Source: Protoeuglena noctilucae (taxonomy: Eukaryota). Taken from it: a stretch of 64,000 nucleotides of DNA. Each line of letters starts with the position of its first letter. Within the stretch, counting starts at the first letter, position 1. The stretch is from NCBI GenBank assembly GCA_958009085.1, contig OY253672.1:806001-870000 (forward strand), given 5' to 3'. Shown piece by piece: positions 10,620 to 17,182 of the stretch. The notes under the pieces were generated by a model. The model saw only the letters and a list, made by a program, of their open reading frames with translations, searched no databases and was not told the origin of the DNA. The translations under genes and the position numbers were made by a program.

Positions 10620-11610
10620 TCAGGGCTTCTGGCCGGCGTTGGCGTAGCTGATGTAGCCGTTCCACAGCAGCCCGGCCGCGTTGACGAACGCGACGCGGCC
10701 GCTGGGAGGCACTAGCAGAAAGTTGAAGAGGTTAGCCACCGGCCAGTAGAGGCTCCCGGCTACGAAGGCCGGGGCGGCGAACGTGCGGACCTTTTCTGCG
10801 GGGAGGCGGGCTGGCCTGTCGGGTCAGTGCCGGGACTGCGATGGCGATGATGGCTGGGGATGTAATGGGGGATGGCAAGTCGACATCCGGCTGCCCGCAG
10901 CCCTTGACTGCCAGGGCCGCCCCTCGCCGCCCCTCTAACAACCCCATGTACACGGAGAAGGCCAGGATGTAGGTCGGGAAGAGCGTGACCTGCCCCGTCG
11001 CGCTTTTGGCCATCGCACGGATCAACGGGCTGCCACCCGTCGCCACCCGCAACCCGTCCAGCCACTTAAAGCCCCTGCGGCGACGCAAGGGCGGTAGGGT
11101 CTCGCCTTGATGCAAGGGAGCGCCTCTGGCACGCCGGACTACTCCGGGCGGTCTGCTCGCCACGCACCAGAAGAAGAAGGGCCCGTGCAGCGTCAGGCCG
11201 ACGAGCGCGAATCGCGCCGTCCTCTGCCAGTCGACATGCTGCCCTGCCGGCGCCTCCCTCGCCCCATGCGCAAGCATCGCCCCAGCATCCTGGGCCCGGC
11301 GCTCGCTCGGGGCGCGCGATGGCGAGGCGTGCGTGTGCGATGCCGTCCTCTGAAGAAAGCACGGTGACGAAACGAGGGATTGATCGTGCTTGGGCGGACT
11401 ACCTGGGCCGCGCGCGCCACGACAAACGCGCGCCACGCGATGCGGATTGGTCCCAAAAGGCGCCTCCGCTCCCATCCGAGCCCGCCCCTGCGGGCCTTAA
11501 AGGTCACTCGCCTGGGCCTGAATGAGCTGGCACGTCACGTCCCCAGCAGCCATCAAACTGCAGCTCGTCAGCGCGGCCCGCAGGACGGGTCGGAGGGGAG
11601 CGACCCGCAT
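10620..11610 (-). CDS. Mpv17/PMP22 family membrane protein
   Basis: LTSCSLMAAGDVTCQ, DWQRTARFALVGLTLHGPFFFW/GFKWLD, AKSATGQVTLFP, AGSLYWPVANLFNFLLVP, FVNAAGLLWNGYISY. Confidence 0.85.
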
Positions 11611-11828
11611 TTGGGCTGGCCAGACGGAGGCGCGCCTGGTAGACGTAGATGCAACGATGTCCGGCGTCAGATGTGCGCCACCGTCCAGAGAGCCTTGCCC
11701 TGACGTCACGCCAGGAAACGACACGCGTTTCTGAGCCGGTCAGTGACGTCCAATCCCCGCGGCGATCGGCCAGCCACAGTTCCCCAATCCCAAGAGAGTT
11801 CCTCTCGCAGCGCTCCGGCAGCACTCGG

Positions 11829-12495
11829 ACGCTCGTTATCGCGGCAAGAAGCCGTCTTCGCCTTTCCAGCCTTGGGCTAACCAGGCCGCCGCGCAAAGCA
11901 GGCACTACGTCGCGGGTGGCCAGCACCCTCTCTTTGCGGGGTGCTCGTCCCGCGAGGCGATCCGGCGGTCGTGGTGCCGCTCCAAAGGACGGAGGACACC
12001 CGTCGGTGAGCGCCCTGCGCCGTCCCCGCTCCTCTGCAGCGTTTTATTTCTCACTCTGTTTATCGCCCCGGGCATCGGCGGCCTCTGCCGTGCGCTCGGT
12101 TCGCCCAAATGCGGCCCGGGGAGTTCGAGCCAAACGCGGCGCTCGCTGGCCCCGCGGGCTCCGGAGCGGGTTCAGCAGTGTCGTTTTATTCATGAATGCT
12201 GCGATCTGTCGTCGAACGGGTCGGAAATGCCATCCCCTGGCCGTGTCGGCTCGCTAAGTTCTGTGTGTGGCAGGCCGGGCATCTCGCGGCGGCCAGGCCC
12301 CCGCGCGTCCGCCCAGGTTCCTCAGGTCGATTGCACGCTCAAACTCTCGCGGATGCGGGCGCTGGAGCCGCGCGACCGCGGTTTCTCGCCAAAGACGCCC
12401 CCACGCGGCTCTCGTGATGCCAACGTGCCCTCTTTGATTTGTCGCGCCCCCCGCCGCCGCAGGACGCCCTTCGCAACGCTGGAGGCGGTCACTGA
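11829..12495 (+). promoter_or_regulatory. Conserved-peptide upstream ORF of GDP-L-galactose phosphorylase (exons ~11829-12005 and 12463-12495; candidate ACG start)
   Basis: Spliced translation ...PRKAG...SGGRGAAPKDGGHPS/DALRNAGGGH* resembles the plant GGP uORF core GGRGALPSEGGSPSDLLFLAGGG. Intron gtgag(12006)...ccgcag(12462). Confidence 0.8.
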
Positions 12496-12967
12496 GCTGC
12501 GCAAAGAGTGACCGACGACCGCAGACCAGGCGAGTGTGGGCCCGCCAGCTGGCTGCGAGGGATTGGCCGGCATCTTTCTGGGCAGGGCGCGGCGCGGGCG
12601 CCTGCCCCGCCCTCCTTTGTAATTTTTACGACATCCTCGTTGCTTATGGTGGCCCATATGCCCCGCACGCACCAGCAGCGGGCTTATATTGGCGCTGGGG
12701 GTTGGTCCGCCACACGGCTCGCTCGGGCCCATTTGCGCCCTGCGGCCGCGCGCGCCGCGTCGGCCGCTCCGCGCAGGCAAGCCATCGACTTGTGATCTTG
12801 CATTTCACACAGGTAGTTTGCGCATTCCCCTTGAGCAGCAAGACGTACTGAGGAGCTCGGGCTAGCTGGACTAGCCGGCGCAAATACTGCACCTACGGAG
12901 CGCGCACCCGCGCGCGTGTATCGAGTACATCCGCGGGAAGACCCCGAGTGCGCAGAACGGCGCCAAG

Positions 12968-14929
12968 ATGTCGTGCCCGCTCTACATTTCCAAGGTGCGC
13001 ACGGCGAGCGCCCCCTTACCTCAGCCGCGCGCGCGGGCCCCGGCGCGCCGGCGCTCCCGCGCGGCCGTCCGTCTGCTGTTCTCCGCCGCTCTCTGACCGC
13101 CCGCGCCCCGCCGCTCGGCACGCGCGCAGGTCCAGAGCGTCGTGTCCATGGCGCAGCTCCTGGAGGACGGGCGGGAGCTCCCGGAGATCGAAATCAAGGA
13201 CCTGAACCGCCTCACGCCGAACGCGAAGATCGCGGACGTGATGGGCAGCTACATCCCGTTCGTCGGATACGCCTCGACCCCCGCCGTCGCCGCCAAGGCG
13301 GTCCGCAGCTTCGTGCGCGTGCCCAGCGCGCGGACGCTGGCCAACCTCAACGGCAACGAGGACTCCGAGTCCGTCTCCTCCTTCGATTCGCGCGCCCAGG
13401 AGGTGACGGCGCCTCGCTTGGGCTTGCTCTTGCTCTTGTCCATGGCATAGCATCGGCAGAGTGGGCGTGGACGAGACCTGGCGTGGGTTTTGGCTCCTTC
13501 GCCACGCCACGCACTGTGCCGGCGCACGAGCTGCGCTCGTGGCCGCCTTTCTTTGCAAACCCTGCATCGCCGCCTTGGGTCGCAGTCGGACGGGGACACG
13601 ACCGAGACGGCCCCGCCCCGCCCGCCCCTGGCGCGCTCCTACATGGACGCCATCATCATGACGGGCTGGGAGGACCGCAAGGCCCTCTTCCGCTACCCGC
13701 TGGCGGACACGGAGACCAAGGTCGTGCCCGGCAAGCTCGGCTTCGTCGCCCAGCTGAACGAGGGCCGCGCCACCAAGAAGCGCGCCACCGAGTTTCGAGT
13801 GGACCTGGTCACGCAGGAGGCGAGTGGGTCATTCGGGGTGGCGCATGGCGACCATGGCCGGCGCCACCCCAGAGCAGCCCACGCAGACGCCCAGTGCGCC
13901 CTGCCTGATGGTGTAACCTCCCGGGCTCTCACAGTTCGACGACGGCAAGTTCAACTTCACCAAGGCACTGCAGCACGAGGCGCTGTTCCAGTTCGCCCCG
14001 TCGCGCTCCGGCGCCTCGCAGTACCACCTTTCATCCCGGGTGCGCCGGTCGCCGTCCCTGGTGCTCATCAACGTGTCGCCCATCGAGTACGGGCACGTGC
14101 TCCTGTGCCCCTGGGTCCTCAACCGCATCCCTCAGCTCGTCGACCCGGCAAACCTCCTCCTGGCACTGCACTTTGCCAACGAGTCGGCCAACCCGTGCAT
14201 GCGCCTCGGATACAACTCCCTCGGCGCCTACGGCACCATCAACCACATGCACTACCAGGCCTACTACATGCAGCACGCCTTCCCCGTCGAGCTCGCCGAG
14301 ACCGTCGACCTCTGCCAGCCAGAGCACGCCGACGACTACCAGGCGAGACATGGCCCCTGTGCGCACCCGTGCATGCCCTCGGCGCCCGCCCTCCTTCCGC
14401 TCCGCTGTCTGCCCAACCCGCCCGTGCTCACGCTCCTCGTTGCTCCCCGGCGCAGGTGTCGGTGCAAGAGGTGACGGGCTACCCCGCGCGGTGCCTCGTC
14501 TTTGAGGTGAATGACTGCCTGGAGGCGCTGGCGGACGTGGTGGGGCGGCTGTGCCAGGAGCTGGCGGCGCGCAACGTGCCGCACAACCTCCTCATCTGCG
14601 ACACGGGCCATCGCGTGTTCCTCTTCCCCAACAACTTCAGCGCCCAGCAGGCGCGCGGCCGCGTCCCTGAGGACGTCCTCGACACGGGCGTCAACCCCGC
14701 GTGCTTCGAGATCGCCGGGCACATGGTCATGAAGCGCCGGCAGGACTACGAGGACCTGGACGAGGCGGCGTGCGAACGCCTCCTGGCCCCGTGCTCCTTC
14801 CCGGCGCCGGTGTTCGACGCCGTCGCCGCCCTCGCCGAGGAGGCGGCGCGCCTGCTGCCGCACCAGGAGCTGTCCACGGCGCGACTCGAGGCGGCGCTGG
14901 CGGAGATGGCCGCCGAGTTGCCCAACTGA
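12968..14929 (+). CDS. VTC2: GDP-L-galactose phosphorylase (ascorbate biosynthesis)
   Basis: MSCPLYISK/VQSVVS; WEDR..LFRY; GFVAQLNEGRATKKRATEFRVD; FDDGKFNFTKA; INVSPIEYGHVLL; RLGYNSLGAYGTINHMHYQAYY (HIT-like motif); VNPACFEIAGHMV. Confidence 0.95.
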
Positions 14930-15285
14930 GGGAGGTAGCGTCACATTGCGTGGCGAGGGTGGATTCGCGCTCACGTCCTCTGATTTAGCCGTCACGTAGT
15001 ATGACGACGGCCTTTCCCAGTTTTCCGCAACGCCTGCTGGACGAGCTTGTAGTATCTTGTCGCTGCTGCGGCCTCACTCTCACTCGCCTTTTTCTGCGGC
15101 TGGTGTCAGGGTGCCTGAGCCATCGCCAGCCGGCAACAAGTATTTGAACGTAGATGTCCAAAGTGACCGTTACGAAGCTGCTCTGGCCGCGCGGTATCCG
15201 CCGCAAGTGGGCTCGCCTTGCCGTCTCTGCGCTCTGGGCAAGTTCCCCTGCTTGGGAGCATCTGAAAAGGCCCTTCCTAGCTACC

Positions 15286-17182
15286 ATGGTCGAACATGAT
15301 GTTCGTGATGTTGTGGAGGCATTGAGGGTGAGCCTCGTGGCCTTTCGGGGGCGCGCGGCTCACAGGTGCCGCCTCGTGTCCCCGAGCCTCTCGCGTGCGC
15401 AGCCACAACTGTGCGCTCTGATAGCATCACGAGCACCATAACGACGATAATATCTTTGCAGGGCAGCAAAGTTACGCCCAAGAAGGCATGGAGGGCCGCC
15501 GTGGGGCGCCTCGCCACGCTTCTGGAGCGCTGCCCCCGCGCGCTGGCTCGGCTCACGGATGGGACAGGCAGGACGGTCAAGTTTGTGACCCGGATAAGGT
15601 TGGACGAGCAGGGAGGCCATGGAATCGTCGCGCTTCTGAGAGGGATGGCTGCGAATGCTGTGGAGAACTGCGCATGGGCCAGGAATGAGCCGCTCCTGAC
15701 GAGCGACATCCTCGATGGACTGGCCAAAGCGGAGACCCTCAATCTGAGCGAGGTCGGGGAGCCGCTGGAGCGCATGTACGCCCACATCGCCGCGTGCGTT
15801 GACAGCGCGGCACGACCGACGACCTTCCTCGCCCTGTGCGCGTCCTGCACCACGGCAGGGCCTTGCGATGCCGCGCGCCAGGCGAGCCAAAGCGAGCCGT
15901 GTGCGTGGCCGAGACACCATGATCCCAGCGCAGCGAGATATTGCTGACACTCCTTCCTGCCGCGCATCTGATGCAGGCGTGGGCCGACCTGGCCTCCCTG
16001 GGCAGTCTCACCGACGACCAGCGGGCATGGCTTCTGAGGCCGGGGGGCGTGCTGCGGCGGGGCCTGGAGACCATGCGTGCCACAGACCACGAGAGCGTGG
16101 ATGGGCGCGTCGCTGCTGCCATCCAGTCGCTGCTCAGGTCTGCCATCACCGCCCTGGCAGCAGCGCACATGCCACGCACCTCGTCCCATGCTCAGCTGTA
16201 CATGGCCGGCGCCTCCTGCCCTGCACGCAGGGACGCACTGGCATGGCGACAGGGCCTGACCCACGCGCAGGCGGGCCAGGGCCTTCTGGATGGCTTCGAT
16301 TGGACGGCAGCCCGCGAGGCAGCGACCAAGCCCCTCGCCAACATCCCTGCAGTCCGCGCCAAGGAGCCCGAGCCCTCCGCCCGCCTGGACAGCCCAGTGG
16401 CTCAACAGCCCAGTGGCTCGCCCGGCATCGCACACCCGAATGCTGTATCAACAGAGACAGGCCTCCAGGTCTCGCCCAGCTCAGCTGCGCAGGCTGTCGC
16501 ATTCGCCACAGAAGGTGACGACAGGTCGGCTGTGCTTTGCAAGGGCGTAGCTCCATGCGATGGTGGGGATGTGCTGTGTGTCGCTGCGCCGCAGTGACGT
16601 GGGACCAAGGGTTGACCGACGTCCACGTCTACGTGCCTGTGCCAGTGGGAACCAAGGCCGGGGCCATCGCAGTGGAGGTCAGGTCAGTGTCCTCGTGTGT
16701 CGCCTTGGCACGCACATGAACGACGACACCTGCCATTCACATCCCACAACCCATCATCTCGATCGGTGGGTCCATCCTACCCTTGCAGGCCGTCCCACCT
16801 CAGCGTGGCTCTGCGGACACCCGAGGGACTCGTCGCCCTGGCAGCTGGCACCCTCCCGCACCCGGTGTTGCCCTCGGAGTCCCTGTGGGTCGTGGAGCAA
16901 GAAGGCAAGAGCAACACCGTGCACGTCGTGCTGCACAAGAAACCGGGCACGGCCCCCTGGCGGACCCTGTTCACGGAGGGCGCAGGAGAGGCCAAGTCGC
17001 ATGTGCAGGTACTCTCTGAGCTGCTGGCGGCGGACGACCCGCTGTGCCGCGTGGATGAGATGGACGACGATGCCCAGGACCTGCTGGCGGACCTGCTCGA
17101 CCGGCAGCGGATGGTCGCATCGGGGGAGCTGGACCTCGAGAGGGGTTTCGACGACTTCAGAATCGTGCTAGGCGACCGGTGA
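15286..17182 (+). CDS. Protein with C-terminal CS (p23/NudC-like) domain
   Basis: C-terminal exons TWDQGLTDVHVYVPVPVGTKA..., GTLPHPVLPSESLWVVE..VHVVLHKK..PWRTLF. N-terminal part unrecognised. Confidence 0.6.

Follow-up and report, generated by a model that had tools for sequence, protein, structure and literature searches.

The mRNA of GDP-L-galactose phosphorylase (GGP), which catalyses the step that controls vitamin C synthesis in green plants, carries in land plants a uORF (upstream open reading frame) that is started by ACG (PMC11066809), is 60-65 residues long (PMC7020166), and is a favoured gene-editing target for crop ascorbate (PMC11066809, PMC7084844). In the sections of these papers available to us the plant uORF is proposed to stall ribosomes at high ascorbate, and it may be connected with nonsense-mediated decay (PMC11066809, PMC7020166, PMC6191929), and it is also stated there that neither the peptide nor ascorbate-enhanced stalling has been directly demonstrated in plants (PMC11066809). 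The same available sections give the range of the uORF as "mosses to angiosperms" (PMC12559526, PMC7084844), and describe Chlamydomonas as being without the land-plant feedback mechanism (PMC7020166). The locus analysed here belongs to a chlorophyte alga, outside this published range, and it raises the question of whether such an alga has the same control element upstream of its GGP gene. An earlier note on this DNA had claimed that it does, in the form of an intron-split, non-AUG uORF with a conserved peptide, and had noted that Chlamydomonas VTC2 is reported to lack the uORF. Positions below are those of the window, which is the whole 64,000-nt stretch of Protoeuglena noctilucae DNA that was analysed.

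To define the transcript, RNA and DNA contigs were compared over positions 11300-15300, using three marine metatranscriptome runs from two studies (study P1 for X1 and X2, study P2 for X5) together with a single DNA run (X8). The splice junction between 12005 and 12463, which the earlier note had proposed, was present in the RNA contigs of all three metatranscriptome runs. It has GT..AG borders, with CCGCAG ending the intron, and skips 457 nt; it was absent from the single DNA run, the contig of which was colinear with the window. Hence, the uORF is indeed split by an intron, as the RNA contigs carry the junction, and it is indeed located upstream of GGP, as the same contigs connect the exons of the uORF with the coding sequence of GGP. 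The 5′ ends of the RNA contigs were at 11796 (X2), 11797 (X5), and 11818 (X1), which is 11-33 nt on the 5′ side of ACG 11829; the furthest of these ends, 11796, is used here as the border of exon 1, although contig ends do not define transcription starts. A short X1 RNA contig of low depth (162 nt, depth 2.8) covered window positions 12521-12682, from leader exon 2 into leader intron 2, and it could stem from a precursor not yet spliced, from retention of the intron, or from carried-over DNA. The features of the locus are collected in Table 1.

Table 1. Features of the GGP mRNA and its leader uORF, in window coordinates.
Feature	Position	Strand	Basis
Exon 1 of the GGP mRNA (5′ leader)	11796..12005	+	RNA contigs up to the donor at 12005
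uORF part 1, as delimited in the earlier note	11829..12005	+	59 codons from ACG 11829
Other in-frame near-cognate codons	ATC 11838, AGG 11883, ACG 11907, GTG 11916, TTG 11934	+	
Conserved core, N half, RSGGRGAAPKDGGHPS, profile positions 1-16	11958..12005	+	profile alignment; mostly synonymous differences from L001
Intron 1, 457 nt, GT..AG, phase 0, interrupting the uORF core after the PS codons and before the D codon	12006..12462	+	RNA junction
uORF part 2: DALRNAGGG (profile positions 17-25), H, TGA stop at 12493-12495	12463..12495	+	
Leader exon 2	12463..12529	+	RNA contigs; splice sites
Leader intron 2, 283 nt, GC..AG, GCGAGT donor, CAG acceptor	12530..12812	+	junction in 3 of 3 RNA runs
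Last leader part; with 12496-12529 it makes up the 189 AUG-free nt from the uORF stop to the GGP start	12813..12967	+	
GGP main ORF, 471 aa, ATG 12968, stop 14927-14929; exons 12968-12994, 13130-13402, 13586-13819, 13935-14342, 14456-14929	12968..14929	+	RNA junctions

The identity of the main ORF was supported by several comparisons. The four introns of its coding sequence were found in the RNA contigs, and the spliced translation was identical to database protein P0122. The exon at 13935-14342 had 998 homologues at E ≤ 1e-5, many of which were named GDP-L-galactose phosphorylase by their source; among the 120 homologues listed, 117 carried both PF26216 and PF26217, and three carried PF26217 alone. 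A Pfam scan of three GGP exon pieces of the window gave no match. In a GGP tree, which is a midpoint-rooted tree of a single gene, the window protein was grouped with proteins of the type found in the metagenome contig L001, and it was placed together with another protein and that of Pedinophyceae sp. YPF-701 with support of 100/100.

The frame in exon 1 reads as it was given in the earlier note, that is TLVIAARSRL...RRSGGRGAAPKDGGHPS, with 59 residues followed by GTGAGC at 12006. On the spliced mRNA it has 69 codons from ACG 11829 and contains no ATG, also as claimed, and it is already open from the 5′ end of the RNA contigs. The spliced leader, which is at least 432 nt long when counted from 11796, has no ATG at all, while 5.1 would be expected in 432 nt from the window-wide frequency, and an ATG-free leader was obtained in 1.2% of 20,000 shuffles (probability 0.012). 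The two leader introns, in contrast, contain eight ATG in 740 nt, six of them in intron 1.

To compare this frame with the leaders of other GGP genes, a set of 80 loci was used, which are metagenome contigs found by a scan with a GGP alignment. A profile HMM of 25 positions was built from 19 distinct unsplit cores of other GGP leaders, including those of land-plant type, with no seed from the window or from any locus with a split core; the regular expressions used to choose the seed cores were patterned on the motif, which brings in some circularity. The profile was run over 18,597 six-frame ORFs of the 80 loci and the window (Z = 18,597). The data showed that the spliced window peptide matches the profile end to end, from position 1 to position 25, with an E value of 1.5e-5, and that the uORF is the only one among the 54 six-frame ORFs of the spliced mRNA to be reported at E ≤ 10. 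The 25-residue core is formed by RSGGRGAAPKDGGHPS and DALRNAGGG, which are joined across the intron, and one further codon precedes the stop. The nearest relatives of the window are loci L001-L003, in which the GGP exon is 79% identical to that of the window. These loci contain RSGGRGSRPSQGGHPS, then a GT..AG gap of 747 nt, and then DALRSAGGGH and a stop. Comparison of the 26 core codons between the window and L001 gave eight identical codons, 13 with synonymous changes, and five with non-synonymous changes, and in uORF part 2 five of these changes were synonymous and one was non-synonymous. The nucleotide differences in the core were distributed 4/3/16 over the three codon positions, so that 16 of 23 are at third positions (binomial P 4e-4). 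In the 14 codons that precede the core, the differences were distributed 10/10/8, and the region N-terminal to the core is without coding constraint relative to L001. The ratio of 13 synonymous to five non-synonymous changes suggests selection on the peptide, here quantified for one pair, the window and L001. Hence, judged from the pattern of codon changes, the constraint is on the C-terminal core as a peptide, and the peptide part of the earlier claim is borne out both by the match to a profile of other loci and by the prevalence of third-position differences from L001.

Two explanations that do without a conserved peptide have to be weighed against these data. One is that the likeness arose by chance, from a GC-rich open frame rich in Gly, Arg, and Pro that happens to lie beside a fortuitous splice junction. 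The window has 68% GC, and such DNA yields long open frames with many G, R, A, and P residues; moreover, the unspliced N half of the window core alone matched the profile only with E 0.045. However, splicing at the RNA-supported junction brings profile positions 16 and 17 exactly together, which gives the end-to-end match with E 1.5e-5; the nearest relative, L001, has the same split core; and no comparable match occurs elsewhere in the 64-kb window, where the best one has E 1.9. Chance likeness, which is contradicted by the profile match, the L001 core, and the window-wide scan, was therefore rejected and is considered extremely improbable. The other explanation is that the conserved element is not a translated peptide but works at the RNA level, for instance by folding, by binding a protein, or by enhancing splicing around intron 1. 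In its favour, an intron interrupts the core at a conserved position in 14 sources, namely the window and 13 loci, and the sequence is rich in G, which might allow folding or the binding of factors. This explanation does not fit the excess of third-position and synonymous differences from L001, nor the fact that the amino-acid core is kept over GC contents from 0.43 to 0.70, both with and without the intron. Neither does it fit the Rfam search, in which no family was matched in the region 11500-13100. An RNA element, including one of a known RNA family, was rejected because of the synonymous bias of the differences and the lack of an Rfam match, and we regard it as very unlikely. Altogether, the codon comparison points to selection on the core as a peptide and not as RNA.

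The start codon of the uORF is less certain than its core. The claim of a non-AUG start held, given that no ATG is present in the leader, while ACG 11829 has no comparative support as the start: this codon aligns to non-ACG sequence in L001, and it has C at both the -3 and +4 positions. Among the other in-frame near-cognate codons, ACG 11907 has A at -3, and GTG 11916, with G at +4, is found at the same distance in L001 (15 codons before the Ser of the core). Judged from this context, ACG 11907 or GTG 11916, rather than ACG 11829, may serve as the real start. The length of the uORF would be 69 codons from ACG 11829, 43 codons from ACG 11907, and 40 codons from GTG 11916. In L001, the 135 codons that separate the upstream stop from the end of exon 1 are likewise free of in-frame ATG. 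An in-frame ATG occurs in the window at 11649, and no stop interrupts the frame from that point on; the ATG is upstream of every RNA contig end and 3 nt from the end of the contig of a neighbouring transcript (11512-11646). Transcripts including this ATG, if there are any, would have an AUG-started uORF of 129 codons. In other loci the starts were of several types. The sequence ATC ACG GCT was found at the expected start in all ten land-plant-type contigs examined, and AAG ACG GCG in three of three alga-like contigs (L038, L069, and L080), which are Pyramimonas-like and related. An in-frame AUG is located 5-28 codons before the core in Ostreococcus/Micromonas-type loci, and in loci of the L014, L034, L042, L049, L056, L058, and L062 types. 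The AUG-started algal uORFs are 40-55 residues long.

The core was also widespread upstream of GGP in the 80 loci. A full-length match with E ≤ 4.5e-9 was found in 49 of them, an N half followed by a gap, or a truncated core (L031, C half only), in 14, with the break at one and the same position, and no core in 17. All 49 full-length matches, seven of which were not among the seeds, had the same strand as GGP and preceded the exon-6 match by 570-1084 nt, while no core match below E 0.1 was found in the loci on the opposite strand or downstream of GGP. The proposal that this alga retains a homologue of the land-plant element is therefore correct as regards homology, but it was too narrow, because 63 of the 80 loci, across many chlorophyte lineages, have the core upstream of GGP. 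The land-plant core motif, which the earlier note had given, was recovered in 12 land-plant-type contigs in the form HGGRGALPS(E/A)GG(S/C)PS(D/N)LLFLAGGG; three of these contigs were placed in a tree, among angiosperms. The taxon labels of the loci rest on protein clusters at ≥90% and on single-gene trees. By such clusters, the L007 type corresponds to Ostreococcus mediterraneus, the L011 type to O. lucimarinus CCE9901, and L032 and L052 to Micromonas pusilla, while in FastTree trees core-bearing loci were placed with Pyramimonas, Trebouxiophyceae (L073), the Bryopsis group (L062), and mosses (L006). The GGP of L038 is nearly identical to that of Pyramimonas obovata. As for the loci in which no core was found, 11 of 17 have at most 731 nt of sequence upstream of the match. 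In the remaining six (L044, L051, L072, L075, L077, and L079) the core was not found despite 1268-1817 nt of upstream sequence, and alignment of the Ostreococcus mediterraneus-like L044 to L007 and L019 showed no degraded core. L072, L075, and L077 have a GC content of 0.47, and the GGP ORF of L072 has 572 aa, with members of its cluster reaching 586. The core-less loci L072, L075, L077, and L044 may reflect losses within Mamiellophyceae-like algae, or may be assembly artefacts.

The position of the intron within the core is shared as well. A core split between profile positions 16 and 17, with the N half followed by GT, was found in the window and in 13 loci (L001-3, L014-16, L034, L041-43, L056, L059, and L065), of which the split in L042 was read by eye. 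Wherever the C half was located, which was in nine sources, it was preceded by AG, and the gaps were 110-747 nt long. This split position is common to several distinct GGP clades, while the genomic loci of Ostreococcus/Micromonas type are unsplit. A profile search of 5.8 billion proteins returned 29 small clusters, 49-90 aa long and without Pfam domains, which were called hypothetical or predicted, or had no name. One of them, P0236, a 50-aa 'predicted protein [Ostreococcus lucimarinus CCE9901]', is identical to the uORF peptide of L011 (L011:7260-7409). The GGP that adjoins P0236 is recorded in NCBI as a partial predicted protein of 319 aa.

To place the window uORF among known elements, it was compared with three groups of uORFs. 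Like the land-plant GGP/VTC2 uORF, it is located in the 5′ leader of GGP and has no AUG start, and the peptide core is the same (HGGRGALPSEGGSPSDLLFLAGGG in the land-plant-type contigs, SGGRGAAPKDGGHPSDALRNAGGG in the window). The AUG-free spacer to the main start is 189 nt in the window and 108-231 nt in the 12 land-plant-type contigs. On the other hand, the window uORF is split by a phase-0 intron, lacks the land-plant ATC ACG GCT start context, and is not conserved in the region N-terminal to the core, all of which differs from the land-plant uORF. After the GGG the window frame stops after one codon, while the land-plant tails have 1-18 codons. The Ostreococcus/Micromonas-type uORFs have a homologous core upstream of GGP, as the window does, with the stop 1-4 codons after the Gly run, but they are started by AUG, unsplit, and diverged in their cores (...GRGGAAKEGAEPNDVTQL.GGG and ...GRGSSS.A.GALPYDVVHLAGGG). 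Their AUG-free spacer was 56-374 nt in eight of nine representative loci; in the ninth, L068, the spacer is 622 nt and contains four ATG. The uORFs of SAMDC, of the sucrose control of S1-bZIP, and of XIPOTL1 likewise encode a short peptide conserved in its amino acids, which in their case represses the main ORF in cis (PMC11062462, PMC6878703). According to the available parts of these papers, they are believed to work within the exit tunnel; their sequences are unrelated to the GGP core, and the ligands named for them (polyamines, sucrose, phosphocholine) differ from that of GGP.

These comparisons make it quite probable that the window frame is the algal orthologue of the conserved-peptide uORF of land-plant GGP/VTC2, including the control mechanism proposed there. 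By analogy with land plants, we infer an ascorbate-sensor function for the window uORF. Some of the scanning ribosomes would start at a near-cognate codon, which could be ACG 11907, GTG 11916, or ACG 11829, and the nascent core, which is about as long as the exit tunnel, would make the ribosome stall on the stop codon or directly beside it. Because the stop in the algal uORFs follows the Gly run after 1-4 codons, the core would occupy the full exit tunnel when translation terminates. The stalled ribosome would keep the following ribosomes from the GGP AUG, and it may expose the mRNA to nonsense-mediated decay, which is possible because five exon junctions are located downstream. High ascorbate, or a proxy of it, would strengthen the stall and thereby exert feedback on vitamin C synthesis. 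The lack of the feedback in Chlamydomonas, as stated in the available part of one study (PMC7020166), means that conservation of the ascorbate response in algae is not assured.

It could also be considered that the frame is translated but works as a constitutive brake, or as a spacer for leaky scanning and reinitiation, which would keep basal GGP translation low and would not sense ascorbate in this alga. The Chlamydomonas observation is consistent with such a role, as is the statement, in the accessible text of PMC11066809, that direct evidence for ascorbate-enhanced stalling is missing even in plants. The AUG starts of the Ostreococcus/Micromonas-type uORFs would also fit it, because an AUG-started uORF was strongly repressive in plant reporters (PMC11066809, in the part available). 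A brake that is independent of sequence, however, would not keep a 25-residue core under peptide-level selection from chlorophytes to land plants, and wherever the element was found it was associated with GGP. A constitutive brake is therefore seen as an unlikely, though not a negligible, explanation.

Under the reading that the window frame is an orthologue of the land-plant sensor, its age can also be considered. Orthologues are present in the window alga, in Ostreococcus and Micromonas, and in Pyramimonas-, trebouxiophyte-, and ulvophyte-like leaders, which sets the origin at least in the chlorophyte-streptophyte ancestor. The control element thus looks far older than the land plants. It is somewhat probable that the GGP uORF was not invented by land plants but dates at least to this ancestor, with the phase-0 intron already in the core, and that it consists of a sensor of about 25 residues before the stop, with basal repression tuned by the strength of the start codon. 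The start would then be AUG in the Ostreococcus/Micromonas-type algae, and a near-cognate codon in the lineage of the window, in Pyramimonas-like algae, and in land plants. Such deep conservation narrows the functional part to the roughly 25 residues beside the stop codon, and natural variants with AUG and non-AUG starts are found side by side, open to comparison. If this is true, transformable picoalgae such as Ostreococcus could be simple systems for studying how the peptide senses ascorbate status, and unicellular algae would be usable for mechanistic work on the GGP uORF. The data also illustrate that regulatory ORFs which are split by an intron and have no AUG escape annotation; even the AUG-started version of O. 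lucimarinus was filed as an anonymous predicted protein. Against the literature, where in the available sections the range is from mosses to angiosperms and green-algal control is described as different (PMC12559526, PMC7084844, PMC7020166), the algal version appears to be new. No report of an algal GGP uORF was found in the literature searched, as far as the text of the sources was available, and primary studies may hold an earlier look at an algal leader. Wheeler 2015 makes no mention of a uORF, and a full-text literature search with a 12-letter piece of the land-plant motif returned no papers.

Two further observations concern the introns of this region and the gene next to GGP. GC..AG borders were found in four of the seven RNA-supported introns, which is an unusually high share. 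Three of them are among the six introns of GGP (+ strand donors at 12530, 13820, and 14343), and the fourth, at 11350-11511 (CT..GC as read on the + strand), belongs to a neighbouring transcript on the minus strand. This transcript is represented by the contig at 11512-11646 and by sequence up to 11349. The interval 11647-11795 had no RNA contig cover, a gap which in itself says nothing on where transcription starts. About 150 nt separate the end of the neighbouring transcript from the starts of the GGP RNA contigs, which suggests that GGP and its divergent neighbour have a short promoter region in common.
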